Positions 30,659 through 54,593 of a stretch of 64,000 bases of DNA are shown one piece after another. The stretch is from Verrucomicrobiia bacterium (lineage in GTDB: Bacteria > Verrucomicrobiota > Verrucomicrobiia > Limisphaerales > UBA1319). Where the stretch lies: positions 1,920,001 to 1,984,000 of the forward strand of contig OY760937.1 of the NCBI GenBank assembly GCA_963664225.1, read 5' to 3'. A program made the position numbers and the translations under genes. The notes below the pieces were generated by a model. That model was given only the letters and a program-made list of their open reading frames with translations. It had not been told where the DNA came from and did not search any database. Every line of letters begins with the position of its first letter. Position 1 is the stretch's first letter.

Positions 30659-31549
30659 TCATTTCCTGCGGACGCACCGGTAGCCGTTTGAATCCATGGT
30701 CAGGCACACATCTGTCTGACCCGCCTCATCGCAATTTCGAATCCAGGATGTGCAACTGCCCGCGCTGCTGGACCACGCGCCCCCTCGGAGCACCCGCTTT
30801 TCGCCTTGCTTGGGACCGCGCGGATTGTCACCAGGACTTTCCCGATAATACTTCACTCCGTAAAAGTCGTTGCACCATTCCCACACATTGCCTGACATGT
30901 CGTATAACCCCCAGCCATTGGGCTTCCTCTGGCCGACCGGATGGGGCTTGGACTGGGAATTTCCGTCAAACCAGGCGAAGGATTTCAGCTCCTCGGGAAC
31001 GTCCCCAAAATAGAAGGGAGTGCTGCTGCCCGCCCGGCACGCATATTCCCACTCCGCTTCGGTGGGTAGCCGGTATCCACTGGCCGAAAAATCGCACTCC
31101 CAGTTGTTCGTGTCATAGCAGGGCTTCAAACCCTCCTGAACAGAACGCGCGTTGCAGAACTTCACCGCAGCCGACCATGTGACCTGCTCAACTGGATTCT
31201 TGGGATTCTTGCGCCGGGATGGATTTGTGCCAGTCACCTTCTCGTAAACTTCCTGCGTGATCTCATACTGATCCATGAGAAAACCATCCAATTTCACCTC
31301 GTGCGCCGGTTTCGCGTCGATGGGCCCCTCTTTCACTCCCATGGTGAATTGACCCGCAGGCACGGAAACCATGTCCATGCCGCACGCAGTCTTGATCAGT
31401 TGAGTGGCGACCGGTTGGGACTCTCCGGTTTGGCGATCGCAGCCGTTGAAGACACCGATCACCAGAAGTGCGACGAACAGCTTTCCAGCCGAGCCGAACA
31501 ATCCATTGTGAATCTGTTTGTTTGAATTCATACCTGTAGGTGCTCCCAT
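30659..31549 (-). CDS. Formylglycine-generating-enzyme (FGE-sulfatase) domain lipoprotein
   Basis: Lipobox-like 'VFNGC'; 'FTMG', 'RLPTEAEWEYACRAG', 'PNGWGLYDMSGNVWEW', 'RGGAW', 'GYRCV'. Confidence 0.88.
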   Translation of the reverse strand: MGAPTGMNSNKQIHNGLFGSAGKLFVALLVIGVFNGCDRQTGESQPVATQLIKTACGMDMVSVPAGQFTMGVKEGPIDAKPAHEVKLDGFLMDQYEITQEVYEKVTGTNPSRRKNPKNPVEQVTWSAAVKFCNARSVQEGLKPCYDTNNWECDFSASGYRLPTEAEWEYACRAGSSTPFYFGDVPEELKSFAWFDGNSQSKPHPVGQRKPNGWGLYDMSGNVWEWCNDFYGVKYYRESPGDNPRGPKQGEKRVLRGGAWSSSAGSCTSWIRNCDEAGQTDVCLTMDSNGYRCVRRK

Positions 31550-33888
31550 TACAGCTCAAAGAAATACAAGGTGCGACGTGATTCCCAACGGGTAGGCTGC
31601 CGCAGGACCGCGCGCGATTGATCCCAAATATATTTGGCGATCACCGCCTTTTCAGGCGAATCACCACATTTTAACGCCGCTGTTTGGGAAAGCCTCATGA
31701 CCAGCCGATTGTAACGGCGGCAAATATCATCCTGCGACCCGGCAGTGCCTCTGACGTCAAGATTGCCACAATCGAAGCCGTCTCCTTTGCCCTCCAGCAA
31801 TAGCTTCTTCATGGCCTCGATTTTCTTTTCCACTGAAGGAAGGGGCGTGGCATAAATCTCCTCGGATTGAGCCTGAGCCCCGGCGACCATCCCTTCCAAC
31901 TCGGCGATATAATCTTTCACTTCAGGATGGGCTTTCTTTTCGCTCGCAAGGTAGTCCTTCATCTGCGTGAAGAAGGTTCCGTATTGATCCACGCGACCGC
32001 GGATTTCCCGGATGAACTCAAAAAGGTGCGTGGCAAGGTCCACTCCGAGTGTCGGCTTTTCAGCGTTCTTGATCTTAGAGAGCCGCGTGGTTGTCGCGCA
32101 AACAGGCCGGTCAAAAAGGAATTGGTCTGGCGTGGAATATTTGAGCTTTCTCAACTTGTTGGCGTCGAAATCAAACAGCGCATCCGCTTTTTCCTGCCCA
32201 AGGGCTTGTGCAACTATTTCGCATGGTGAAATGAGATCCGCAGCCGCCGGTTCGAGGAAGTAAATCAGCGCCTCACCATTGGGAACGAAGGTTTTCTCAA
32301 AATGAAATACAGTGCGCGGTCCGTCGAAAAAGAAAGGGTAATGGTTCCAATCCTCGAACCAAACACCCCACATTCTCGTTTTGGCAGAGGCAATCGGAAA
32401 TGAGTATTCCATGTAGGGATTGCGGAAGGATGGTTCTCCACCTGGAGTCACGAAGAAATGACCCATCCAATGGGCCGGGAACGGACGCTCCCACTTAATA
32501 GGCACGTATTCGCCAAGCCAATCCTCGTTTAGTGTTTCCCGATGCCAGATCCCGGCGTGCTCCACCATTGAAAGCGAGAATCCATTCTTGTCTGTGGCAA
32601 TGGACAACGAATCGATCATGCGGTTTTCTCCCGCGCCCGACAGACCGAGCGAGACCGCCTGTGCGTCTGATTTCCAGGCGGCAACGAGCATGCTTTCATT
32701 CCCGTCCACCAGGCCCACAAACCATTGCGTTGAAGGGATCCGAAACTCACTGTCGGCTGACATTTTCTGAGGCGCATAACAGATATCCGTTCCAGCAAAT
32801 GACGGCAATAGGCCATAGCGGAGATGGCAATCCCGCACCTGAAACTGGGGAATCAGGGTGGCCTCAATGGTGACCAGTCCCTTGGCCGTGAACCAGACCA
32901 CGTAGGAGCGGTCCCCTGTTGCGGCACTCACACGAATCCCCGTCCGCTCCTTTTCGCTGACCACGCTGCATTTGGGCGATGCCAAGGCGGGCGACGGAGT
33001 GACAACGCATCGTTGCTTGAGTTTACCATCCTGCACGGCGTAAATGGCCACCCCCCCATCACTCTGGCGCACCACACCGGCAAGGCGGGGTCCCGCAATG
33101 GCCTGCGCCGAACTCTTGACCAACGCCCCCAGGTCTTTGGTGGACCAATCGATGTCCGCGCCGGGTTCCGATTTCCCATCCCAAGCGGTTGTCGCAAGTG
33201 ATGCGGCCTCTGAAGAAGCCTTGGGTTCGTATCGGATCAATTCGAAGTCATCGGCAATGATTGGCGAACCCATCTCCCCTTCTGTGCCATGGTAATTGCG
33301 AAATTCCTTGGATGTTCCGCCCAACGTGAGCGTCAGTGAACCGCTGCGGTCCAGCGCGCAAAAATTTTCGAGTTGAATCCATTGTCCACGGGGCACTTTG
33401 ATTTCCGCGCAATTGTATGCAGCCCAAGGACGGTCGGGATCGCGGAGAAAAAAAGTGATCGGTTGATCGGCTTCGGATTTGACCCAGCAACGAGCCAGAT
33501 AGGGTCCCGCAACCACGGAGTCAAGCTTTTGTTCAATGGCGGTGTGGGCCGGGATCGCAATCGCATTGAGCCCGCCATGCGCCACATTGTTCGTAATCAA
33601 CACTTTACAAGCGCCGTCGGCTGTGGCGGTCCAGTTCGGAGGATTGTCGAGAGAAGAGGCGGGAACTTCAAAACCGGGGTTTTTCAGGAGATTCAGGAGG
33701 TTTTGCTCTGCGGCGGAGCCACTCAATGAGCAAAGCACTGCAGCCCAGATCATTGCGACGATCCACAGCGTGGTTCTTTGAAACCAACTGTCATTCACCG
33801 ACTCTGTGATTTTCATCATAAGTTGTTCAAGGGGAAGAATATAGTGGGTTGAATTATTTTTGCCAGGATTGGAAGCGTGGGTCGGCAT
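31549..33888 (-). CDS. Large secreted hypothetical protein with N-terminal CBM4/9-like domain (true start probably near 33819)
   Basis: 779-aa ORF abutting its neighbours; signal-like segment then 'NLLKNPGFE'; helical C-terminus. Confidence 0.6.
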   Translation of the reverse strand: MPTHASNPGKNNSTHYILPLEQLMMKITESVNDSWFQRTTLWIVAMIWAAVLCSLSGSAAEQNLLNLLKNPGFEVPASSLDNPPNWTATADGACKVLITNNVAHGGLNAIAIPAHTAIEQKLDSVVAGPYLARCWVKSEADQPITFFLRDPDRPWAAYNCAEIKVPRGQWIQLENFCALDRSGSLTLTLGGTSKEFRNYHGTEGEMGSPIIADDFELIRYEPKASSEAASLATTAWDGKSEPGADIDWSTKDLGALVKSSAQAIAGPRLAGVVRQSDGGVAIYAVQDGKLKQRCVVTPSPALASPKCSVVSEKERTGIRVSAATGDRSYVVWFTAKGLVTIEATLIPQFQVRDCHLRYGLLPSFAGTDICYAPQKMSADSEFRIPSTQWFVGLVDGNESMLVAAWKSDAQAVSLGLSGAGENRMIDSLSIATDKNGFSLSMVEHAGIWHRETLNEDWLGEYVPIKWERPFPAHWMGHFFVTPGGEPSFRNPYMEYSFPIASAKTRMWGVWFEDWNHYPFFFDGPRTVFHFEKTFVPNGEALIYFLEPAAADLISPCEIVAQALGQEKADALFDFDANKLRKLKYSTPDQFLFDRPVCATTTRLSKIKNAEKPTLGVDLATHLFEFIREIRGRVDQYGTFFTQMKDYLASEKKAHPEVKDYIAELEGMVAGAQAQSEEIYATPLPSVEKKIEAMKKLLLEGKGDGFDCGNLDVRGTAGSQDDICRRYNRLVMRLSQTAALKCGDSPEKAVIAKYIWDQSRAVLRQPTRWESRRTLYFFEL

Positions 33889-35050
33889 AAATGCGTTTGG
33901 CGAGGAGTTCGTAGCCGGCGGTCAGGGGGTGGCTGGCGTCGGCGTACAACTCGCTGGGCAGGGTCTCTGGAACAATGGTTGGAATCTTGTTCTCGTTCAG
34001 CCACAACAGGATGCCATCACGGATTTTGTGGAATTCCTGCCGGTTATCCTCGGTCATGAGGTGCTCGTTGAACGGCCCCAGAACCACCAGGACGTCGTTT
34101 CCCCGAGCGTTCAACCGGTTGACCGTGCGTTGAACGGCGTGCCACTGGAGGGAGGCATCGAGTCCCACCCATTCGAAGCGGGTCGTGCCTTTTCCGTCGG
34201 TGGACCACGGTTTGTGTCGCGGGCTTTTTGGCCCGCGCTGGGGATCGTCGAGGGGTGCGGACGGGACGACCATCGTGATCTGGGCCAGTGGGTTTTTGTA
34301 GGAGTTCGGGTGGGTGGGCGGACTGCTCGTGCCATCCTCCTCAAGGGTCCAGGCGGCGATGTTCTTTTGATCGAAATAGGCGTTCTGCAGATGGCCCACC
34401 CACTGCAAAAAGCCAACCTCACGCTGAACGACCACGCTCAAGCGCTCGCTGGCGTCCGCCTTGTAGCAGGGAATGCGAGGAGTGAACTGCGGAACGAGGC
34501 TGGAATGATTGAATGCATCCTCCTTCTCGGTGCTCAGGTCCGCTTTGGGGCTGGTCATCCAAAGGACATTGCACTGCAGGATCACTTTCTGGTTTCGAAG
34601 CGCCTTGCCGTAGTAATCCAACAGACCTTCCTGTGCGAGCGGGAACATGCCATTGATCCCCATATTCACAAAACGGTTGGTGGCCCCCGCTTCCTTGTTC
34701 AAGAAATGGGACAGGGTGCCATCGGGCGCCACGTATTCGCCCCAGACGACGGAATCTCCGAGCACGATGGTCTGGTTGTGACCGACCACCTGGCCCATTC
34801 TCCGTCCATAGAGCCAGTAATCCTTGCTCAACGAATAGGGAATACGGTAGTCAGGGCCGGTATCGAACCGCTCGATGCGTTCCCATATCTTTGGGACGAG
34901 CAGCAACGCCAGGCCGACGATGAGCAACGTGGTAATCCATTGCCGACCATTGAGCCGCATCTCATTGACACCAAATGGGACCGGTGCTGGCACTCCTACG
35001 GGCTTGGCGGCGGTTTTGATCGGTTTTGGCGTTGGTGGAATAATCTCCAT
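33854..35050 (-). CDS. SGNH/GDSL-like membrane-anchored protein (AlgX/DltD-like MBOAT partner)
   Basis: TM anchor, 'VLGDSVVWG' block I, 'N.G..G', 'YADASHP' (DxxH). Confidence 0.7.
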   Translation of the reverse strand: MEIIPPTPKPIKTAAKPVGVPAPVPFGVNEMRLNGRQWITTLLIVGLALLLVPKIWERIERFDTGPDYRIPYSLSKDYWLYGRRMGQVVGHNQTIVLGDSVVWGEYVAPDGTLSHFLNKEAGATNRFVNMGINGMFPLAQEGLLDYYGKALRNQKVILQCNVLWMTSPKADLSTEKEDAFNHSSLVPQFTPRIPCYKADASERLSVVVQREVGFLQWVGHLQNAYFDQKNIAAWTLEEDGTSSPPTHPNSYKNPLAQITMVVPSAPLDDPQRGPKSPRHKPWSTDGKGTTRFEWVGLDASLQWHAVQRTVNRLNARGNDVLVVLGPFNEHLMTEDNRQEFHKIRDGILLWLNENKIPTIVPETLPSELYADASHPLTAGYELLAKRIYADPRFQSWQK

Positions 35051-35051
35051 A

Positions 35052-36653
35052 TCAGAACTGGAAGTAAATGAATGCGCCGCCGCCCGAGGAACAGACGCAG
35101 AGATAGAGCAACATACACGCCGCCAGGCTCACACGGACCAGCCCGATCGCCAGAACCTCCCTGACTTTCGATTCATACAAAAACTGGTAGAGCCAGATCA
35201 GGGCAATCAGCAGGAGCATCAGCGCCGGAATCTGCGGATCCTGCCATGCGGCGGTGAAGATGCGCCGGACGATCAGCATGGCGTCGCCCATCGAGTCCGC
35301 GCGGAAGAAAATCCAGGTAAAGGTCACGAAAAGAAACACGCCGAATTGCTTCAGGAGCTTGGGCACCCGTTCGCGATAGAATTCCGCCCGCTCGAGTTCG
35401 CGTGTGATCAGAACCCCCAGGCCATGCAGAATGCCCCAGATCATGAAGGTCCAATTGGCCCCGTGCCAGATGCCGGAAATAAAGAAGGTGATGAAGAGAT
35501 TGCGGTACGTGAGGAGAGTTCCGCCCCGGTTTCCCCCCAGGGGGATATAGACGTAATCGCGGAACCAGCTTGAAAGGCTGATGTGCCAGCGCGACCAGAA
35601 ATCGCCCAGTCCTGTCGCGAGGTAGGGATTGTTGAAATTGAGAATCAGATTAAAGCCCATCAATTTGGCGACGCCCCGGGCCATGTCGGTGTAACCGCTG
35701 AAATCGAAGAAAATCTGCCAGCCGAACGCCACGGTGGCGAGGAACAGCGCCGGTGCGCCAAAAGCACTTGGGTTGTCATAGACCCGCTCGACATAGAAGG
35801 CCAGGTAGTTGGCCAGTGCCAGCTTCTTGAACAGCCCCACGAGAAACAGGGAGGCGCCGTCCGTGAAATTTTGCATTCGCACCGGCGGGAATTGATTGAA
35901 CTGGGGCAACAGATTCCGCGCGCGCTCGATGGGACCCGCCATCAACTGCGGGAAGAAGCAAACAAAGGTGGCGAAGCGGAGGAGATTGCGCTCGCGATGC
36001 ACCTTGCCGAAATAGAAATCGATGGTGTAACTCAGCGATTGGAAGGTGAAGAAGGAGATTCCAACCGGGAGCAGGTATTGAAAACCCAAGGGCATGAGGG
36101 TCGAAGGATCGGCCAGTTTGAGCGGCAGATGCACCCACGAAAAAGCCACATTCAGGTTTTCGACAAAGAACCGGGCGTATTTGAAAAAGATAAGCAGTGC
36201 CAGGTTGTTCACGAGGCTGATCAGCAGCCAGATTTTGCGACTGCTGTAGAGGGCACCCAGCGCCATGAGCAGGACAAGCACACTGAAGCCCGCCATCGTG
36301 GGCCGTAACGTCTTTGGCCCGACCACCGCGAGGGCAAGAATCCCCAGCGCGGCCAATGCGGAACCCAGGAACGCGATCTTCAGGACCCGGTCGTCAAAGC
36401 GCAGGCGCGTGAGCCGCCCCATGACATTCACCGGTTTTCCTTCCACCGGGCAGTGGTCCATCAGCGCCACCAACCCGAAATCCAGCAGGGTGGAATAAAT
36501 GACCAGCAGCAGGTAATAGGGATTCCACCAGCCGTAAAAGAAGTAGGACGCCAGGGTGAGCCACGGCAGCCAGAGCTTTGTCTTTCGCAGGGCGAAAAAC
36601 ATCGGCAGAACGACCAGCAGGAAGATCAGGAACGGCCAGGTATGAAAGAGCAT
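35052..36653 (-). CDS. MBOAT family O-acyltransferase (AlgI/DltB-like)
   Basis: 'MLFHT..FL.F', 'ASYFFYGWW', 'LPVGISFFTFQSLSY..D', 'FFPQLMAGPIER', 'DFSGYTDMA', 'FWSRWHISLSSWFRDYVYIPLGG', 'GIWHGANWTF'. Confidence 0.93.
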   Translation of the reverse strand: MLFHTWPFLIFLLVVLPMFFALRKTKLWLPWLTLASYFFYGWWNPYYLLLVIYSTLLDFGLVALMDHCPVEGKPVNVMGRLTRLRFDDRVLKIAFLGSALAALGILALAVVGPKTLRPTMAGFSVLVLLMALGALYSSRKIWLLISLVNNLALLIFFKYARFFVENLNVAFSWVHLPLKLADPSTLMPLGFQYLLPVGISFFTFQSLSYTIDFYFGKVHRERNLLRFATFVCFFPQLMAGPIERARNLLPQFNQFPPVRMQNFTDGASLFLVGLFKKLALANYLAFYVERVYDNPSAFGAPALFLATVAFGWQIFFDFSGYTDMARGVAKLMGFNLILNFNNPYLATGLGDFWSRWHISLSSWFRDYVYIPLGGNRGGTLLTYRNLFITFFISGIWHGANWTFMIWGILHGLGVLITRELERAEFYRERVPKLLKQFGVFLFVTFTWIFFRADSMGDAMLIVRRIFTAAWQDPQIPALMLLLIALIWLYQFLYESKVREVLAIGLVRVSLAACMLLYLCVCSSGGGAFIYFQF

Positions 36654-37087
36654 TGAGCCGGAGATGATTGGGTGTGATTGCCGGAACTATTTCGAGGCCC
36701 TCAATTGTTGAAGCTCCTCCGGGGTGACGCGTTTGACATCCTTGCCGCGTTGCTCCCGGTTTGGCGGAGCCGTTACCCGACCTTCGCCGATGTGGGTGAC
36801 GAACGCCAAAAGCGTCGTCCATTTGAATGTCTCCGCTTGCATTGGTTTTGGGCCAATCTACACACGTGGGCGGCCAAATCCAGTTTAATGTCAGGCCATC
36901 GGCGGGACGGGGAAAAACCACAAAGATGGAACGGGGAATGAGAATTTAACCGCAAAGAAATCAAAGATCTCAAAGAGGGAAAAGGGATTTGGAGTTAAGT
37001 ATTTGTCATTGAAACAATTTCCGCCCGAGCCGGGTTGGGGCGTTCCATGAGCGCCAATGCCGTGCTGCCCTGTTTGATGAAAACGAC
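36546..37087. repeat. ~540 bp direct repeat, copy 1 (copy 2 at 40489-41030)
   Basis: Near-identical sequence at an offset of 3943 bp, covering the MBOAT 5' end and its upstream region. Confidence 0.92.
36687..36870 (-). pseudogene. Collapsed remnant of the TolB-like + FGE gene pair (46730-44559)
   Basis: Contains blocks matching 44559-44603, 44728-44749 and 46657-46730 in the same order. Confidence 0.8.
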
Positions 37088-37134
37088 CGCCGCGATGGGC
37101 GATATCGCCAAGGAAAAGTGGACAATACGGACCC

Positions 37135-37626
37135 CTAACTGCTTGCCCGTGAAACATAATCAACAGCATCTCTCAGCGTCCTCATCTTCTCTGCCGCTGC
37201 GTCTGGAATACTGATACCAAACTCTTTCTCGACATCCAAAATAAAATCGACAGTGGACATGGAATCTAAAGCGTCCATACGAATGTCCTCAACAATTCGA
37301 TCATCAGGGTGGAGGCCCGACAAATCCACTGAAATGTGCCGCGACATGATACTGCGGAGCTTCGATGCAACCGCAGCCTGCTCTGGTGGAAAAAACTCAC
37401 GCCCAAACTCTGCATCGGAGAGCGGCTGTCTGTCGGCCATGTAGCGCAGGGCACGCTGTTTCTCGGACTCGTCGCCCAATCGCACTTGGTATATCCTGAT
37501 GGCGATAGCGCTCAGGACGAGAGCAATCTGCGCATACCACGGAACCGGAAGCAGACGCGGCGCTATCAGCGCAATAATGAATGCTCCCGAAGAAAGCACG
37601 ACGAGTATGAACAGAATCGGACGCAT
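37135..37626 (-). CDS. Cassette gene: membrane-anchored acyl-carrier-protein-like protein
   Basis: Two N-terminal TM helices, then 'LDSMSTVDFILDVEKEFGISIPD..AEKMRTLRDAVDYV' (ACP fold with DS phosphopantetheine motif). ATG lies 4 nt after a GTTAGGC core. Confidence 0.75.
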   Translation of the reverse strand: MRPILFILVVLSSGAFIIALIAPRLLPVPWYAQIALVLSAIAIRIYQVRLGDESEKQRALRYMADRQPLSDAEFGREFFPPEQAAVASKLRSIMSRHISVDLSGLHPDDRIVEDIRMDALDSMSTVDFILDVEKEFGISIPDAAAEKMRTLRDAVDYVSRASS

Positions 37627-37630
37627 GGTG

Positions 37631-37741
37631 GCCTAACTTTGATTAAGCGACCAGCGGTCCGTATCTTGGACCGGTGAGAAAGCATTCTTAATTCGTCGCA
37701 TGTACGGGATTTAGACCCTTTTCCACTGATGGTCAACATCA
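37631..37741 (-). promoter_or_regulatory. Pc-like promoter + attI-like site, module copy 1
   Basis: Minus strand: TTGACC-17-TAAATC ... GTCGCTTAATCAAA|GTTAGGC caccATG. Resembles class 1 attI (GTCGCCCTAAAACAAAGTTAGGC). Confidence 0.7.
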
Positions 37742-37801
37742 AGGAGTTCGAGTGATGCCTTCATGGTTGTATGGCTGTTTCGTTCTGCATTGCTACATCC
37801 C

Positions 37802-37894
37802 ATCGACCGACGCGGTTCAGTGGTGGCGGAGCAAAAATGCCCAATATAAAACGGACGGCGAACCCCTCCGTCCACTGCAACCATCTTGTTCACC
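37802..37894 (-). mobile_element. attC-like site (degenerate)
   Basis: Minus: GGTGAAC..ggttgcagtggacggag...ctccgccaccactgaacc..GGTCGAT; imperfect ~93 bp palindrome right after the ORF stop. Confidence 0.6.
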
Positions 37895-37903
37895 CGACGC
37901 TTT

Positions 37904-38320
37904 CTAGACATTCCTCACGCCAATCATGGCTCGCAACTTGCCCAAGTCGGGCGAGTCTGTTGAGACCTCAAATAAATCCTCGGTGACACCTGTTGTCGTG
38001 TCTGCAATACCCACGACAAAACTCCTGCCGCACTCCCGGTTTAGGGTGCCGAGAAATCCGGCGATCGCCTCAACATCGGCAAACCATCCCTCCGACTCAG
38101 CGCCTAGTTCCGGCAACTCCAGATTGAGGCCGAAGTCCCAAAGCGGCAAATCTCCGGGGCGCGTGCATGTGTCCTGGCCGTGGCGCTGATTAACGACCCA
38201 CGCATGACCGGCGATCCAATGTCGGCTGCGAACGAAGCGCGAGAATCGTGGCGTCAACGATTCGGCGACATCTCCGATGTCCGCTCCGTCCACGTAAGCA
38301 TAAAGTGTGTGTTGTGACAT
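37904..38320 (-). CDS. Cassette gene, hypothetical protein (138 aa)
   Basis: Promoterless ORF flanked by attC-like sites. Confidence 0.7.
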   Translation of the reverse strand: MSQHTLYAYVDGADIGDVAESLTPRFSRFVRSRHWIAGHAWVVNQRHGQDTCTRPGDLPLWDFGLNLELPELGAESEGWFADVEAIAGFLGTLNRECGRSFVVGIADTTTGVTEDLFEVSTDSPDLGKLRAMIGVRNV

Positions 38321-38334
38321 GACGCGCTTAAACT

Positions 38335-38427
38335 AGCGAACGATTCAGCTCAACGACGCCGGGCCAATTGTTTCCGATTGGCAATCGAAGCGCGATCCCG
38401 GCCTTGCCTGGAGCTGGATGGTTCGAC
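38335..38427 (-). mobile_element. attC site
   Basis: Minus: GTCGAAC-cATCCAGCTC...gccggg...cccggc...GAGCTGAAT-cGTTCGCT; 93 bp palindrome with AAC/GTT cores, 3 nt after a stop codon. Confidence 0.75.
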
Positions 38428-38430
38428 CTC

Positions 38431-38745
38431 TTACTTGAGTATCTCATGGATGCTCTCTCGATACGCGTCTCGCCTGTTGGCAAGCCACACTTCATAAATA
38501 TCGTGGCTGTGCTCGTCTGCACCTCGCAGAACGCGAGCGAGGGCGTTCGTATTGCCGCTCTCGGAAAGGGACCGAAGCTCATGCACAAAATCGGCGTATG
38601 GTTGCCCCACGCCGTCGTTGCAGATGCCGTGATAGTTGTGAATCGTGCGAGCTTCCGTCATGAAAGAGACAAAATTCCACTCAGCAATCATCGCCAACAT
38701 AATGACGACACCTAGAATGACAATTGTGCGTGCCTTAATAAACAT
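38431..38745 (-). CDS. Cassette gene, small membrane-anchored hypothetical protein (104 aa)
   Basis: N-terminal TM; lies between two attC sites. Confidence 0.65.
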   Translation of the reverse strand: MFIKARTIVILGVVIMLAMIAEWNFVSFMTEARTIHNYHGICNDGVGQPYADFVHELRSLSESGNTNALARVLRGADEHSHDIYEVWLANRRDAYRESIHEILK

Positions 38746-38759
38746 GGCGCGTTTGAGTG

Positions 38760-38852
38760 GTGGAACAATCAGGATTAGTGACTCCGCGCCAGTGACGTTC
38801 GAGTTGAAACCGTGATGCTCTCGCGGGATTCACTGCATCCAGCTTGTTCGGT
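38760..38852 (-). mobile_element. attC site
   Basis: Minus: ACCGAAC-aagctggatgcagtgaatcccgcg...cgcggagtcactaatcctgatt-GTTCCAC; 93 bp palindrome. Confidence 0.72.
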
Positions 38853-38859
38853 TGGGTTG

Positions 38860-39105
38860 TCATCGCCGAAAAGTAAATCGGTCAGCAGTCTCGTCCACAT
38901 CCATCGCCCGACCACGAAGGCTGGTAACCACCAACCAAACACCTCCGATGCACATGGCGGGCAGCAATGTGAACTTCGCGAATCTGCTGCTGGCGCTGTC
39001 GCTCGCAAGATAGAAAAGAGTGACGGCGACCGCAGCGAAAAAAAGTCCAAGAAGCAGCATCACCGCCCGCTTCCGTGTTGTCGCCTTCTGTGGTTGTGAT
39101 GTCAT
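38860..39105 (-). CDS. Cassette gene, two-TM small membrane protein (81 aa)
   Basis: Two hydrophobic segments; ATG 10 nt after the core of attI-like copy 2; attC follows the stop. Confidence 0.6.
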   Translation of the reverse strand: MTSQPQKATTRKRAVMLLLGLFFAAVAVTLFYLASDSASSRFAKFTLLPAMCIGGVWLVVTSLRGRAMDVDETADRFTFRR

Positions 39106-39115
39106 ACGCGTTTAC

Positions 39116-39226
39116 GCCCACCTTTGATTAGGCGACGAGCGGTTCGTATTTTGGACCGGTAAGAAAGTATTCTTAATTCGTCGCATGTACGGGATTTAAA
39201 CCCTTTTCCACTGATGGTCAACATCA
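39116..39226 (-). promoter_or_regulatory. Pc-like promoter + attI-like site, module copy 2
   Basis: TTGACC-17-TAAATC ... GTCGCCTAATCAAA|GGTGGGC. Confidence 0.68.
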
Positions 39227-39300
39227 GACTCCCAAGCGGCAAGGTGAATGGGAAAGAAGTATGTCAAGCGGGTTTGGAGGATAAAAAGGCGGAATGGTGC

Positions 39301-39379
39301 GGGAGCGCGCCCCCCGGCGTCCGATTGGAACTGCTGGCCGACCGCGGTCCTCGTCATTGGCTCAATCCTCTGGTTCGGT
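39301..39379 (-). mobile_element. Truncated attC-like site (right arm missing)
   Basis: Minus: ACCGAAC cagaggattgagccaatgacgagg...; begins like an attC but has no complementary arm or GTT core. Confidence 0.45.
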
Positions 39380-39839
39380 TGGTGTAATATGCAGCAATGC
39401 TCTCGGCATTCTGAATGGCCTCAACATCCGCATCCAATTCCAACAACCTCTGTGCAAGCCATTCGGCCCAGACTCCAACGGCTTGGTGCGCTTTTACCCC
39501 AAGAGCTTCCAGGTTCCACCATATTTTGCCATTTTCCCGGGGCCTGAGATACCCACCCAAATAAATCCACGTTACGTCATCGTCACAATGCTCCATCATG
39601 TATACCATAATCACCGGAAGATAATAACCAACCCCTTGAGGCTTCATGTATGAAAATTCTTCAGTGTAAAGATGACCCCACCCACCTCGCGCCGCCACCT
39701 GTTCTCGAGTTAAGCCAAGATAGTTTTTGAGCACCTCTTCACCATCTATTCCGCCAGCGTCCAAGTCTCCTTCGTGCTGTGGCATCTGGAATCCGCGAAA
39801 CGCATCCTCAATCATCGTCTGGATATGCGTCTGATTCAT
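39354..39839 (-). CDS. Cassette gene, hypothetical acidic protein (161 aa)
   Basis: ATG 3 nt after the core of attI-like copy 3; 'IEDAF....P', 'F.YM.P.G..YYLP..M'; stop lies inside the attC-like sequence. Confidence 0.7.
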   Translation of the reverse strand: MNQTHIQTMIEDAFRGFQMPQHEGDLDAGGIDGEEVLKNYLGLTREQVAARGGWGHLYTEEFSYMKPQGVGYYLPVIMVYMMEHCDDDVTWIYLGGYLRPRENGKIWWNLEALGVKAHQAVGVWAEWLAQRLLELDADVEAIQNAESIAAYYTNRTRGLSQ

Positions 39840-39842
39840 ACT

Positions 39843-39952
39843 GCCGAGCTTTGATTATGCGACGAGCGGTCCGGATTTTGGACCGGATAGAATCCATTTT
39901 TAATTCGTCGCATGTACTGGATTTAGACCCTTTTCCACTGCTGGTCAACATC
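39843..39952 (-). promoter_or_regulatory. Pc-like promoter + attI-like site, module copy 3
   Basis: TTGACC-17-TAAATC ... GTCGCATAATCAAA|GCTCGGC agtATG. Confidence 0.65.
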
Positions 39953-40010
39953 GGAGGTTCTGCCCAGCCCGCTGACTGGCCGGTTTGGGAGCGTGGGAAA
40001 TGGCTGGGGG

Positions 40011-40066
40011 CTGAGGGCTGAGGGCTGAGGGCTGAGGGCTGAGGGCTGAGGGCTGAGGGCTGAGGG
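40011..40066. repeat. Heptamer microsatellite (CTGAGGG)8
   Basis: 8 perfect copies; only 2 copies at the paralogous site 42231-42244. Confidence 0.95.
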
Positions 40067-40488
40067 TTCGGGCCACCTCTCCAGGAGGAGGAACAGCGTT
40101 TGCGCGGCACTTGAAGGTTTGGACGGCGCGAATGATACCGCCGCGTGGGGTTGGCAGTGGCAGATAAATACATGGCTGGGCCGGATGGGATGGGATTTGA
40201 TTCAACGCCTACAGCGTTGGGATTTCTCTGGGGACGGAGACCCCGGGTAGCCCTCGGCGGGCAACCCGGGTCTGAATGATTTAATCCCTTCGGGATAATG
40301 AGGTGCCACCCGGGGTAGCATTTCCACGGCAACCCGAGTGTGAATGATTGCAGCCCGTTCCGGGTTGGCCGGAGGATGGGCGGCAAGGTGCAGTGCAGGG
40401 GGGATTTTGAGTTTCGAAGGGTTGCGCGAGTTCAAATGCCTCTGCGATACGGTGGCCGAACCGGCTGAAGCCGGGACTCCATACCGAG

Positions 40489-41030
40489 GGACGCCAGGGT
40501 GAGCCACGGCAGCCAGAGCTTTGTCTTTCGCAGCGCGAAAAACATCGGCAGAACGACCAGCAGGAAGATCAGGAACGGCCAGGTATTAAAGAGCATTGAG
40601 CCGGAAATGATTGGGGGTGATTGCCGGAGCTATTTCGAGGCCCTCAATTGTTGAAGCTCCTCCGGGGTGACGCGTTTGACATCCTTGCCGCGTTGCTCCC
40701 GGTTTGGCGGAGCCGTTACCCGACCTTCGCCGATGTGGGTGACGAACGCCAAAAGCGTCGTCCATTTGAATGTCTCCGCTTGCATTGGTTTTGGGCCAAT
40801 CTACACACGTGGGCGGCCAAATCCAGTTTAATGTCAGGCCATCGGCGGGACGGGGAAAAACCACAAAGATGGAACGGGGAATGAGAATTTAACCGCAAAG
40901 AAATCAAAGATCTCAAAGAGGGAAAAGGGATTTGGAGTTAAGTATTTGTCATTGAAACAATTTCCGCCCGAGCCGGGTTGGGGCGTTCCATGAGCGCCAA
41001 TACCGCGCTGCCCTGTTTGATGAAAACGAC
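40489..41030. repeat. ~540 bp direct repeat, copy 2: MBOAT 5' stub pseudogene + collapsed TolB/FGE remnant
   Basis: Matches 36546-37087; the MBOAT stub (MLFNTWPFL...) runs into a REP-like element. Confidence 0.9.
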
Positions 41031-41100
41031 TGCGGGAATGGGAAAAAGCGTCAGGGAAAAGGGGATAATACTATGGTTTGGACCCTAACTGCCCCTAACT

Positions 41101-41535
41101 CTAACTTTTAAGTCGCTTGGACTCTCTCTTGCCGTGTTGCTTCGGGTCAGCAAGCACCCGAGCCGTCTTCCAGAATCGGAACTCTCGATAGACTGTCTCG
41201 CACTTCATATCTTTATTGGGAAAGCGGAGCTTTATGTACAACAGGTGTGGCTCGATGAGGGCTTCGACCTTATTCGTCGGAGAACTTATCCACTCCCAGC
41301 CACGGTCCGTGTGGACGTAGCTGCCTGCATCGAAAGGAGGCGGGTCCACTTCAAGCCAGTAGAGTATTCGGCCTCCGGCAAACTGTACAAAATTGTGCGA
41401 AACTGCTCCCACGTCGGCGAATTCCTGAGGCACTTGATAAATTCCCGTGACTGGTCCAGCCGCGAACCATGCGCCGACGAACGCAATCCCGAACGCACAC
41501 ATGCTGCCAACTAGTATCTTATAGCGCTGCTTCAT
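41101..41535 (-). CDS. Cassette gene, exported hypothetical protein (144 aa)
   Basis: N-terminal signal/TM; lies downstream of a degenerate attC; ends at AGT-TAG. Confidence 0.65.
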   Translation of the reverse strand: MKQRYKILVGSMCAFGIAFVGAWFAAGPVTGIYQVPQEFADVGAVSHNFVQFAGGRILYWLEVDPPPFDAGSYVHTDRGWEWISSPTNKVEALIEPHLLYIKLRFPNKDMKCETVYREFRFWKTARVLADPKQHGKRESKRLKS

Positions 41536-41555
41536 AAGAATATGGTGGTCGGCGG

Positions 41556-41645
41556 CCTTGACGTCCGCGATGAGGGGCGGCGGGCCGGTGGCATTCGGAT
41601 TGCAACTGAGACGTCATCGTGGGATTCGCTGCAGCCTGATTGCTA
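41556..41645 (-). mobile_element. Degenerate or hybrid attC-like site
   Basis: Intergenic ~90 bp; left part resembles the 38760-38852 attC (gcag(c/t)gaatccc), arms pair poorly, ends GTCAAGG. Confidence 0.4.
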
Positions 41646-42077
41646 AGTGCCTTCTTCATTGTGGTGAACCGGAATCGTCACTACCTCGAATTCTTGTCCG
41701 TCTTTGCTGAAGGTGAAGATCCAGCCGGTCTGCTTGAAATCCTGCACCTCACAGGTCACGGAGTAAATCAGATCATCCGAGCCTGCCTTGAGGCTCATTC
41801 GTGCTTTTGTCGCGGCCTGTTCGAGTTTCTTCCGCTCTTTGGGTGTGAGGAGGCCAATGCCTTCGTCTTCAAGGCATGCCTCGTCGTGTGCAACACCACT
41901 GCCTAACGACGGATCAAATGGATGTCTGTTCGTGACGAAAATATGAGGACGCTCCAAGCCCCAATTCTCGTATTCCTCTTTCGACTCAGCGACCACCTGC
42001 ACGTAGCCGACGCACTGACCCTCATTCCACCAGACCAGATCGCCAAGTCGAATCGTTGAGCCATCGGGGTATCTCAT
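41643..42077 (-). CDS. Cassette gene, hypothetical protein (144 aa)
   Basis: 'MRYPDGSTIRLGDLVWW' N-terminus; ATG immediately after attI-like copy 4. Confidence 0.7.
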   Translation of the reverse strand: MRYPDGSTIRLGDLVWWNEGQCVGYVQVVAESKEEYENWGLERPHIFVTNRHPFDPSLGSGVAHDEACLEDEGIGLLTPKERKKLEQAATKARMSLKAGSDDLIYSVTCEVQDFKQTGWIFTFSKDGQEFEVVTIPVHHNEEGT

Positions 42078-42185
42078 GCCCTCTGATAATGCGACGAGCG
42101 GTCCGGATTTTGGACCGGATAGAATCCATTTTTAATTCGTCGCATGTACTGGATTTAGACCCTTTTCCACTGATGGTCAACATCA
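42078..42185 (-). promoter_or_regulatory. Pc-like promoter + attI-like site, module copy 4 (core altered)
   Basis: TTGACC-17-TAAATC ... GTCGCATTATCAGAGGGC ATG. Confidence 0.6.
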
Positions 42186-42389
42186 GAGGTTCGGCCCGCT
42201 GGCTTACCGGTGCGGCAGCGTGGGAAATGGCTGAGGGCTGAGGGAGAAAGCACGGAGGAGGTTGAGGGTTCAGACCACCTCTCCAGGAGGAGGAACAGCG
42301 TTTGCGCGGCACTTGAAGATTTGGACGGCGCGAATGATATCGCCGCGTGGGGTTGGCATTGGCAGATATATACATGGCTGGGCAGGATG

Positions 42390-44558
42390 GGGATGCGGAA
42401 TTTGATTCAACGCCTACAGAGTTGGGATTTCCTGGGGGACGGGGACCCCGGGTAGCCCTCGGCGGGCAACCTGGGGCTGAATGATTTAATCCCTTCGGGA
42501 TAATGAGGTGACACCCGGGGTAGCATTTCCATGGCAACCCGAGTGTGAATGATTGCAGCCCGTTCCGGGTTGGCCGGAGGATGGGCGGCAAGGGGGAATG
42601 CAGGAGGGATTTTGAGTTTCGAAGGGTTGCGCGAGTTCAAATGCATCTGCGATACGGTGACCGAACCGGCTGAAGCCGGGACTCCATACCGAGGGACGCC
42701 GGGTCGGGGGACACGGCCTACAAGTTGATGCGGCGGATAATATGATGATCTGACTGGCTGAAGCAGGGTGCAGACCTGATCATTTAAGCACGATTGAGGA
42801 GGATCAACGATTGCAGATTGGAAATCTGCGATACAGCAGACAGGATGTCTGCGCTACGGCTGGAAGGCTGCGAATGCTACAAGCCGCTCGATTTCATAGC
42901 GGTCCACGCAGGCTGAAGCCGGGACTCCATACCGAGGGACGCCAGGGTGAGCCGGAAGGGTGGAAACCGCTAATCCTCGGTAATTGACGCTAATAAAATG
43001 GAATTTAAGGTTCGCGCGAAGTAGTGAATAAGACAAAAAGTCAGGACGGGATGGGTTTTAACCGATGAGCAGCGATACCCGCCAACTGGTTTATCGGAGG
43101 CGTTAAGCCGACTAAAAGTCGGCGCTCCGCCGTGGGTGTTTCAACCGTCGTCACGCTATGGGCCTTTGCGTGTGGCGGAAACGAAAGGGGGAATGGACGG
43201 GATTGGGGGATGCGGAATTTGATTCAACGCCTACAGCGTTGGGATTTCTCTGGGGGGGGCGAGCACCCCGGGTAGCCCTCGGCGGGCAACCCGGGGCTGA
43301 ATGATTTAATCCCTTCGAGATAATGAGGTGCCACCCGGGGTAGCATTTCCACGGCAACGTGGGCTGAATGATTGCAGTGCGTTCCGCATAGCCCGGAGGA
43401 TGGGCGGCAAGGTGCAGTGCAGGGGGGATTTTGAGTTTCGAAGGGTTGCGCGAGTTCAAATGCCTCTGCGATACGGTGACCGAACCGGCTGAAGCCGGGA
43501 CTCCATACCGAGGGACGCCGGGTCGGGGGACACGACCTACAAGTTGATGCGGCGGATAATATGATGATCTGACTGGCTGAAGCAGGGTGCAGACCTGATC
43601 ATTTAAGCACGATTGAGGAGGATCAACGATTGCAGATTGGAAATCTGCGATACAGCAGACAGGATGTCTGCGCTACGGCTGGAAGGCTGCGAATGCTACA
43701 AGCCGCTCGATTTCATAGCGGTCCACGCAGGCTGGAGCCGGGACTCAATACCGAGGGACGCCAGGGTGAGCCGGAAGGGTGGAAACCGCTAATCCTCGGT
43801 AATTGACGCTAATAAAATGGAATTTAAGGTTCGCGCGAAGTAGTGAATAAGACAAAAAGTCAGGACGGGATGGGTTTTAACCGATGAGCAGCGATACCCG
43901 CCAACTGGTTTATCGGAGGCGTTAAGCCGACTAAAAGTCGGCGCTCCGCCATGGGTGTTTCAACCGTCGTCACGCTACGGGCCATTGCGTGTGGAGGAAA
44001 CGAAAGGGGGAATGGACGGGATTGGGGGATGGGATTTGATTCAACGCCTACAGCGTTGGGATTTCCTAGGGGACGGGGACCCCGGGTGGCTCGTGCCTCG
44101 CGACCCGGGGCTGAATGATTTAATCCCTTCGGGATAATGAGGTGCCACCCGGGGTAGCATTTCCACGGCAACCCGGGTGTGAATGATTGCAGCCCGTTCC
44201 GGGTTGGCCGGAGGATGGGCGGCAAGGGGGAATGCAGGAGGGATTTTGAGTTTCGAAGGGTTGCGCGAGTTCAAATGCATCTGCGATACGGTGACCGAAC
44301 CGGCTGAAGCCGGGACTCCATACCGAGGGACGCCGGGTCGGGGGACACGGCCTACAAGTTGATGCGGCGGATAATATGATGATCTGACTGGCTGAAGCAG
44401 GGTGCAGACCTGATCATTTAAGCACGATTGAGGAGGATCAACGATTGCAGATTGGAAATCTGCGATACAGCAGACAGGATGTCTGCGCTACGGCTGGAAG
44501 GCTGCGAATGCTACAAGCCGCTCGATTTCATAGCGGTCCACGCAGGCTGAAGCCGGGA
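42390..44558. repeat. 817-bp tandem repeat (~2.6 copies) composed of several REP-like palindromes
   Basis: 'tttgattcaacgcctaca' at 42401, 43218 and 44035; a partial copy also at ~40190-40490. Confidence 0.92.
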
Positions 44559-54516: not shown

Positions 54517-54593
54517 TGGCGGGAGTGGCGGGGCTCGAACCCGTAACCTTTGCCGTGACAGGGCAACGCTCTAACCAATTGAGCTACACCCCC
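54517..54593 (-). tRNA. tRNA-Asp(GTC)
   Basis: GGGGGTGTAGCTCAATTGGTTAGAGCG TTGCC CT GTC AC GGCAA ... GGGTTCGAGCCCC ... CACTCCCGCCA; 77 nt with encoded CCA. Confidence 0.95.

Follow-up and report, generated by a model that had tools for sequence, protein, structure and literature searches.

In the textbook integron, one integrase gene, one attI site and one promoter are followed by a long, largely silent array of gene cassettes. The origin of attC-site clusters without an integron integrase (CALINs) is debated, and such clusters are taken either as remnants or as fresh insertions at genomic sites. Here we analysed a locus of a Verrucomicrobiia bacterium (Limisphaerales; UBA1319; assembly GCA_963664225.1) in which a module of ~110 nt, resembling an attI site joined to a promoter-like half, recurs four times and is followed by short runs of small open reading frames (ORFs). 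The genome comprises 5.78 Mb in one contig (OY760937.1) and is 96% complete. The window is the 64,000-nt stretch at positions 1,920,001-1,984,000 of its forward strand, counted from 1, and the studied stretch lies at 37,135-42,185 within it. Our analysis indicated that the module is probably the attI site plus promoter-like region of an integron type common in this order, detached from its integrase gene intI and multiplied to 11 full copies. A sequence-only reading of the window had proposed a multi-attI satellite array loaded in trans, an interpretation that our results partly support.

In the part of Cury et al. (2016, PMC4889954) considered here, a CALIN is an attC cluster lacking an integron integrase, 95% of CALINs have no intI pseudogene nearby, and attI is given as unknown for most integrons. 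The three attC sites at 37802-38852, in a genome from which IntI is absent, form a CALIN by that definition. Like a CALIN in that account, the locus carries two or more attC sites, one cassette orientation and no intI or recognisable intI pseudogene nearby; unlike a CALIN, which is defined there without attI, most of the small clusters in this genome start with one conserved attI-plus-promoter-like module, found 11 times.

Internal attI and ΔattI sites are already known from integrons of classes 1 and 2; here, many full heads lie on an integrase-less chromosome. In the portion of PMC12901181 on which we draw, the minimal consensus of ΔattI1 is AAACAAAGTTRRRY, which is close to AATCAAAG^TTRRRY of the module (^ marks the point of crossover). 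The ΔattI-type cassettes described there for classes 1 and 2 have a core, ...AAACAAAG^TTRRRY, that is likewise near the one found here, and in both cases attI recurs within the array after an ORF or an attC. The known internal sites are mostly remnants of 14-18 nt, with one ΔattI2 of 244 nt and one natural ORF between complete 65-bp attI1 sites, and they sit in plasmid-borne integrons that keep IntI, whereas the units found here are full 110-nt chromosomal ones with a promoter-like half and without IntI. The same portion reports that attI1-aadB-attI1 is excised at 100% by IntI1, by which its authors explain the rarity of the layout; such layouts should therefore persist only where the enzyme is missing.

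Cassettes can also insert at genomic attG sites, according to the part of bioRxiv 10.1101/2022.09.11.507474 used here. The clusters of this genome resemble attG sites and single attC sites lacking integron-integrases (SALINs), as presented there, in being small cassette clusters scattered over the chromosome away from an integrase, with expression dependent on a nearby promoter. They differ in their target, since attG sites are unrelated sequences with GWT alone in common, while the target here is one conserved module apparently homologous to true attI sites. In the literature that we searched, no description was found of an integrase-less chromosome bearing numerous full heads of attI plus promoter.

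A module repeated in the window

A repeat search of the window returned one family, with four copies of 117 nt that are 82-100% identical to the reference copy. The copies, all on the minus strand, were placed by an nhmmer profile of the ~110-nt module together with a sequence-only model of it, R2 (Table 1). The four-copy module is thus confirmed as an observation, and repetition by chance is excluded by its occurrence at 14 genomic places, with nhmmer E values from 1.6e-34 to 9e-4.

The anatomy given by the sequence-only reading was largely recovered. TTGACC-17-TAAATC is present in all four copies, and copies 1-3 share the 3' end ...GTCGC-N-TAATCAAAG, while copy 4 ends in ...ATTATCAGAG, followed by GGCATG, with an altered core, as had been claimed. 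Alignments also bear out that homology stops at the core: likeness of the copies ceases at the 3' end, an ATG lies 4-17 nt past it, and the ORF that follows differs from copy to copy. The nested hairpin stands in part, its repeats GCGACGA/TCGTCGC and CGGTCC/GGACCG being perfect in copies 3 and 4 but imperfect in copy 1, which has TGGTCGC, and in copy 2, which has GAACCG.

attC sites close the cassettes behind the second module copy

The attC model R1 is a covariance model with R''/L''/L'/R' pairing, built from 15 attC sites of IntI-adjoining arrays in six relatives. Its training palindromes were gathered with an arm-alignment detector and included no sequence of the genome under study; the integron of one relative (G006) had been inspected before the model was built. 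Scanning the window with filters off gave three matches, each of exactly 93 nt and all on the ORF strand, at 34.7-46.3 bits. The next match was the reverse strand of the site at 38335-38427 (15 bits), and all others had E>=0.5. The palindromes that had been read as attC sites thus pass the model; they are true attC sites, and the runs behind modules are shown to be real integron cassettes closed by attC. The site at 38335-38427, whose 5' arm exceeds its 3' arm by 2 nt, is clearly alike to an attC of an integrase-linked array in the relative G014 (L045 5361-5453). Complete chromosomal integrons of relatives (G006, L100) have attC sites of the same family, which score 50-85 bits with R1 there versus 35-65 here.

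The earlier description of ~93-nt palindromes between the ORFs holds for these three sites but is confined to the sub-array behind module 2, and no attC lies behind modules 1, 3 or 4 in the window. The 107-nt spacer between the two 144-aa ORFs behind module 4 fails R1 on the ORF strand. The module itself was considered as an attC and rejected: with filters switched off, R1 matched none of the window's four modules at E<=10, an R''-like GAAC lies upstream in some copies only, and the module lacks an end-to-end fold.

Modules and attC sites across the genome

The 14 places found by the nhmmer profile comprise 11 full-length modules and three partial ones (one 5' half and two 3' halves); the full modules are chromosomal and occupy 7 loci, or 8 when partial copies are counted. 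A genome scan with R1, in which 150 of 1934 candidates were scored, yielded 20 attC sites at E<=0.01. Thirteen of them follow a same-strand module, 265-1526 nt downstream of it. When filter-free scans of 12 regions were added, 20/29 sites lay downstream of a module, where the chance fraction is 0.24%, in a list biased to the 12 regions picked. Counted from the modules, ten of the 14 are followed by a same-strand attC within 2 kb (module 3 being counted via the run of module 2). The recurring layout is a module followed by small ORFs, one to three in number and each with a closing attC, and a second module often comes 1.5-2 kb on (339928/338184, 847758/846121 and 1756494/1754612, plus the four of the window). 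Outside the window, 22 ORFs lie behind modules, and 17 of them have no Pfam family; the others are Prok-JAB, DUF4279, PQQ propeller, Imm33 and DUF3592.

Some attC sites lie elsewhere. A run of four at genome 4118065-4119441 (16.9-65.1 bits) has no module heading it, and single or paired sites were seen at genome 1306951, 2833417, 3107882 and 5221612.

Eight genomic places have a further ~60 nt plus heptad repeats in common upstream of the module. On the minus strand of the window, CCCTCAG heptads form runs of unequal length upstream of modules 3 and 4 (40002-40073 and 42215-42244), and the kindred heptads CCCTCCG and CCCTGCG precede other genomic copies. A dispersed repeat of ~110 nt resembling repetitive extragenic palindromic (REP) sequences occurs at 40184-40333 and 42389-42538 and in 102 BLAST pieces genome-wide, often 100-250 nt upstream of modules. 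Elsewhere it forms tandem clusters with periods of ~191, 237, 297 and 615 nt, and eight copies at genome 1734251-1736442 stand just before a module.

These layouts bear on a rival explanation, that modules within runs are the downstream sites of attI-type cassettes, owned by the preceding ORF and left as by-products of attI x attI or attI x attC events with no role in expression. ORF161, flanked by modules 3 and 2, would suit this explanation, as would module 1, which starts 60 nt beyond the attC at 37802-37894; attI-ORF-ΔattI, attC-ORF-ΔattI and one attI1-ORF-attI1 arrangement are documented and recombine with IntI1 in the part of PMC12901181 cited above. However, the eight places with the common heptad extension have this non-coding sequence upstream, with REP-like repeats near several of them, instead of an ORF, and the 5' 70 nt, with TTGACC and TAAA invariant in 14/14 copies, would be needless for a bare recombination site. 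We consider the explanation improbable; it overlaps the one we prefer and differs from it only as to the gene that the site belongs to and as to any role in expression.

No integron integrase in the genome

IntI was called at the TIGR02249 cutoff of 265 bits, the IntI of G006 serving as control at 446.8 bits. No IntI was found in the window, as the sequence-only reading had noted, and the same is true of the whole genome, where TIGR02249 gave 13 weak matches, the best single stretch reaching 82 bits and none the cutoff. For an IntI elsewhere that would load the array in trans, as had been proposed, this genome offers no candidate, given that the best whole-protein score, 130.4 bits, belongs to a protein scoring 297 bits as XerD. 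By score, the best six recombinases are XerD-like (297 bits), XerC-like (296 bits) or generic, and a divergent IntI among the tyrosine recombinases of the genome was ruled out because all of them score best as XerC, XerD or generic recombinases. The absence of IntI covers the one-contig, 96% complete assembly, outside which a plasmid is possible. Among relatives, 22 of the 60 searched have IntI above the cutoff, and E<=1e-30 was reached by six of the nine that belong to the same family.

The 3' part of the module resembles attI sites in front of intI in relatives

Outside this genome, a search of 150 genomes from the order with R2 gave matches in two, G131 (20.3 bits, model positions 18-114) and G144 (19.3 bits, model positions 73-113). 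Both matches head same-strand attC arrays, of five and four sites respectively at 42-72 bits, and a divergent intI remnant precedes each of them. The G144 remnant is an ORF of 161 aa that matches nothing in NCBIfam but the integron integrase (TIGR02249 positions 2-115, 62.6 bits); against the IntI of G006 its BLASTP E is 1e-17. That of G131 is a stub of 36 aa, which matches residues 39-64 of IntI (BLASTP E 2e-6), and the whole stretch from this stub to the crossover aligns to R2 positions 18-114.

The G144 stub was then used to collect 80 loci from named genome records, and R2 was run on the closest 14 (88.7 kb). Six matches were obtained at E<=1. Five of them cover the last 41 nt of the module and, on the strand opposite to intI, lie 0-18 nt upstream of its start; the sixth (L097, 1.7 kb from intI) is probably a chance match. 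The IntI of L100 is intact (320 aa, 279.8 bits against the cutoff of 265), and a 167-aa ORF and an attC lie behind its attI site, while intI of L098 is frameshifted and the G144 copies are stubs. The shared attI sequence is approximately TCCAA-N-ATACG(A/G)ACCG-N3-4-GTCG-N-ATAATCAAAG^TTAGGC, and the word ATACGAACCG is present two or three times in G131 and G144.

By sequence comparison, the last 41 nt of the module (...ATACGRACCG...GTCGC-N-TAATCAAAG^TT) were thus shown to match a putative attI family that lies directly before intI on the opposite strand and heads attC arrays. The link to intI that the sequence-only reading had proposed to look for is seen in part: no copy in this genome adjoins intI, but the homologous 3' 41 nt does so in relatives, with the divergent adjacency found at L100, L098, G144 (four heads) and G131. 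Complete integrons of relatives follow the same complementarity rule as the clusters here and, at L100, G144 and G131, have the same attI family; they have a divergent intI beside attI, whereas this genome has many attI and no intI.

Crossover point and cassette complementarity

In integrons, R'' of an attC is complementary to the first bases of its own cassette. The module copies stop being alike at CAAAG^TT in 14-copy alignments, and we compared the junctions there with the next attC. Across 23 junction-to-next-attC pairs of the whole genome, the outer four R'' bases gave a mean of 2.87 matches versus 1.94 +/- 0.16 when permuted, and 0/20,000 permutations were as high as observed. The eight module junctions alone had a mean of 2.5 (p ~0.013), although two of the eight duplicate each other. 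At the clearest junction, that of the module at 338184, GTTATGT faces R'' ACATAAC with 7/7 matches on a non-consensus core; in relatives, the junction matches the first attC at 7/7 positions in L100 and G144 and at 6/7 in G131. GTT is kept at 9/13 module junctions, and within the window in copy 1 only. These results support CAAAG^TT as a predicted crossover that obeys the cassette complementarity rule.

The promoter-like half of the module

TTGACC and TAAA at a spacing of 17 nt are invariant in 14/14 aligned full-length copies (11 genomic and three metagenomic), and G131 has TTGACA-17-TAATCT at the place aligned to TTGACC-17-TAAATC of the module. Overlapping the -10-like hexamer, at 37708-37720 and at the same place in every module, is a near-palindrome, GGGTTTAAA(T)CCC, which in the genomic copy 338184 is a perfect 12-mer, GGGTTTAAACCC; it could be the operator for a regulator.

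Between the hexamers and the ORFs lies a conserved stretch of ~75 nt with two nested inverted repeats, which would be expected if the module were a structured RNA (a cis-regulatory leader or small RNA) with an incidental likeness to attI. No covariation was found in the nested repeats over 14 copies, where 85.3% of cells were paired versus 84.7% after shuffling and 102/500 shuffles equalled or exceeded the observed value; pair 84-126 is broken in 8/14 copies and pair 109-119 in 6/14. The module region has no Rfam match at the gathering score and none at E<=1. A riboswitch or small RNA is ruled out by these two results. The genes downstream are, moreover, mutually unrelated, and the homology to sequence adjoining intI would be left unexplained, so that we give the structured-RNA explanation almost no weight.

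Extra heads in relatives and comparison with related strains

Three of five genomes examined carry extra attI heads with no intact intI next to them (G006, G014 and G144). In G006 the 121 nt before the intact intI recur on another contig with 90% identity, starting ~35 nt inside the intI coding sequence and ending at G^TT; this second attI heads two attC sites (49.8 and 65.4 bits), and no IntI lies in its 3.1-kb locus. The second copy in G014 is 76% identical, ends at the crossover and has no attC in 3.1 kb. G144 has four heads made of an intI stub and attI, three of them with attC behind. At two of these, a 581-aa ORF lies beyond the truncated intI stub (L088 7156-8901 and L091 4392-6137); the L088 ORF is a transposase (PF21804, 540 bits), and that of L091 is likened to it by equal length alone. 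Insertion sequences may have cut intI at the G144 heads. A second attI copy was also sought in G059 and G001, and none was found there.

An exact-pattern scan found the module in no genome contig and in only three contigs of one metagenome (L051, L052 and L053), which are 88-94% identical to this genome where aligned. L052 is collinear with the attC at 37802-37894, module 1 and the 163-aa ORF, the surroundings of module 1 being 93.9% identical over 1252 nt. Common to L053 and this genome are the 138-aa cassette and, of the attC before it, the R' side. Further upstream, L053 carries three different cassettes together with three attC sites (41-50 bits) and a module whose own upstream flank is again another one. 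Because the cassettes of L053 and the window differ, cassette content behind a module has changed since the strains diverged. The module of L051 (3311-3419) abuts the region by a miaA-like gene, where this genome (3751143-3753415) holds an ORF of 166 aa in divergent orientation to a tyrosine recombinase of 393 aa, which is no IntI (TIGR02249 55.7 bits).

Other features of the window

The features of the studied stretch are collected in Table 1. The 163-aa ORF behind module 1 has no attC after it and lies upstream of an MBOAT gene (35052-36653), and it may be resident rather than a cassette. The minus-strand genes at 30659-37626 behind module 1 comprise this acyl-carrier-like ORF, the MBOAT acyltransferase, two Pfam-less ORFs (398 and 779 aa) and an FGE-sulfatase-like gene, a set reminiscent of a Dlt-like acylation operon, which the module may now feed.

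Table 1. Coordinates of modules, attC sites, ORFs and the shared upstream extension in the window
Feature	Position (strand)	Score	Details
Module copy 1	37632-37741 (-); genome 1957632	114.3 bits (sequence model)	TTGACC 37736-37731, 17 nt, TAAATC 37713-37708; attI-like 3' part; putative crossover G 37637, then TTAGGC
Module copy 2	39117-39227 (-); genome 1959117	112.6 bits (sequence model)	Heads the three-cassette run; putative crossover G 39122, then GTGGGC, a degenerate core
Module copy 3	39844-39953 (-); genome 1959844	111.7 bits (sequence model)	Putative crossover G 39849, then CTCGGC, a degenerate core
Module copy 4	42080-42186 (-); genome 1962080	107.8 bits (sequence model)	Ends CAGAG, G at 42081
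Upstream extension	39954-40073 (-)		Common to modules 3 and 4 and six other genomic places; ends in (CCCTCAG)n 40002-40073
attC of 81-aa cassette	38760-38852 (-)	43.6 bits, E 9e-9 (R1)	R'' ACCGAAC, R' GTTCCAC
attC of 104-aa cassette	38335-38427 (-)	46.3 bits, E 1.9e-9 (R1)	R'' GTCGAAC, R' GTTCGCT
attC of 138-aa cassette	37802-37894 (-)	34.7 bits, E 1.7e-6 (R1)	R'' GGTGAAC, R' degenerate, GGTCGAT
Cassette ORF, 81 aa	38860-39105 (-)		Predicted membrane protein; nothing above cutoff in Pfam
Cassette ORF, 104 aa	38431-38745 (-)		No Pfam family
Cassette ORF, 138 aa	37904-38320 (-)		No Pfam family; also in metagenome contig L053
ORF161, 161 aa	39354-39839 (-)		Flanked by modules 3 and 2 (attI-ORF-attI layout); DUF6714 match weak, under the cutoff
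ORF, 144 aa	41643-42077 (-)		Immediately behind module 4; no Pfam family
Second ORF, 144 aa	41101-41535 (-)		Behind module 4; run ends GTTAGGG
ORF, 163 aa	37135-37626 (-)	28.1 bits (PF00550)	Behind module 1; acyl-carrier (PP-binding) domain

The region upstream of the modules is one rebuilt through repeated duplication. Three tandem units of ~817 nt lie at 42389-44479, and a duplication of ~600 nt (36546-37130 and 40489-41100) covers the last codons of an FGE-sulfatase gene, intergenic sequence and the MBOAT gene's first ~36 codons; every truncated MBOAT start breaks off at one and the same repeat of 43 nt (family D5). The sole Rfam match in the window is a tRNA gene at 54520-54593 (-), with 65.4 bits.

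Discussion

The part of the sequence-only reading that spoke of repeated attI modules without an integrase was right, inasmuch as the attC model, the heads found genome-wide, the homology to sequence adjoining intI and the complementarity at junctions agree. Several results nevertheless weigh against taking the module for an attI site detached from intI. Four of the 14 modules have no attC within 2 kb downstream. A BLAST search of 40 relatives with the module gave 0 matches, and the best nhmmer E at 29 IntI loci of relatives (L022-L050) was 1. The cross-genome R2 matches are weak when taken alone (19-20 bits, E 0.003-0.006 per genome x 150), and since about one false match is expected over 150 genomes, it is their context that decides. 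For the promoter-like 5' 70 nt of the module, the sole counterpart is the weak one of G131. A scan with the sigma-70 consensus called a promoter in no module; the -10 hexamer ends in a non-canonical C, which is why the scan misses these hexamers. GTT is lost at 4/13 junctions, three of them in the window, although decay after loss of the integrase fits these three copies at least as well as an active design, such as the escape from an expression gradient that the sequence-only reading supposed, and the mutated cores (GGT, GCT and GGG in the window, GTC in L052) fit decay. No intI remnant was found within 1.5 kb upstream of any module (best tblastn E 0.31). Finally, the 5' boundary of the module is sharp, with at least five different upstream contexts, which a simple fixed attI does not predict.

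The last two points would be natural if the module were a resident repeated promoter, of the mobile-promoter kind or resembling a miniature inverted-repeat transposable element (MITE), at whose attG-type end cassettes landed and gained expression with no integron platform involved. In the part of bioRxiv 10.1101/2022.09.11.507474 considered here, the integrase inserts cassettes at GWT sites outside att, with expressed insertions near resident promoters; the module is, moreover, bounded sharply on both sides, its ends match in inverted orientation at 6/7 positions (CTCTGAT / ATCAAAG), and it occurs in several upstream contexts. Yet the 3' 41 nt is homologous to sequence abutting intI in relatives, one of them with an intact IntI, and in G131 the alignment to model positions 18-114 takes in the whole stretch between intI stub and crossover. 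No module was seen within an otherwise intact gene or attC, and no target-site duplication was noticed on reading the flanks, for which no dedicated test was made. Such a resident promoter is, in our judgement, an unlikely source of the module, slightly more so than the attI-type cassettes weighed above.

We therefore return to the module as an attI head separated from intI, for which the following course of events can be envisaged. Heads may have spread in circles made by IntI and carrying attI, as attI-type cassettes, or by ordinary duplication. Recombination of attI x attC would have brought cassettes to each module for as long as IntI was at hand, whether in an ancestor or from outside, and TTGACC-17-TAAATC, as a putative promoter, would drive the one to three genes behind each head. 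After IntI had been lost, the attI-ORF-attI layout would have become stable, and the cores would now be decaying. The persistence of the layout module 3-ORF161-module 2 fits the absence of IntI, because IntI1 excises such layouts at 100%.

A bolder and distinctly more tentative idea is that, in this verrucomicrobial lineage, the integron head itself, meaning attI with the cassette promoter and sometimes an intI stub, multiplies and seeds satellite micro-arrays, so that this genome, at the extreme of such a distributed integron, would offer 11 docking sites with promoters, served by IntI only from outside. If this were true, each cassette would lie within three genes of a promoter and the usual expression gradient would not arise; each head with its genes would also be a ready mobilisable unit, because the integrase excises attI-ORF-attI very efficiently.

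The attI family described here is definable by sequence and appears to multiply independently of the integrase, with 11 heads in this genome, four stub heads in G144 and one additional copy each in G006 and G014. Copied attI heads that seed satellite arrays would be a third possible origin of small CALINs, and also a possible way for cassettes to remain near a promoter. Together, a defined attI, a defined attC and the intact IntI of a relative provide a concrete test system for the mobilisation of attI units and for the survival of multiple attI sites in the absence of the integrase.

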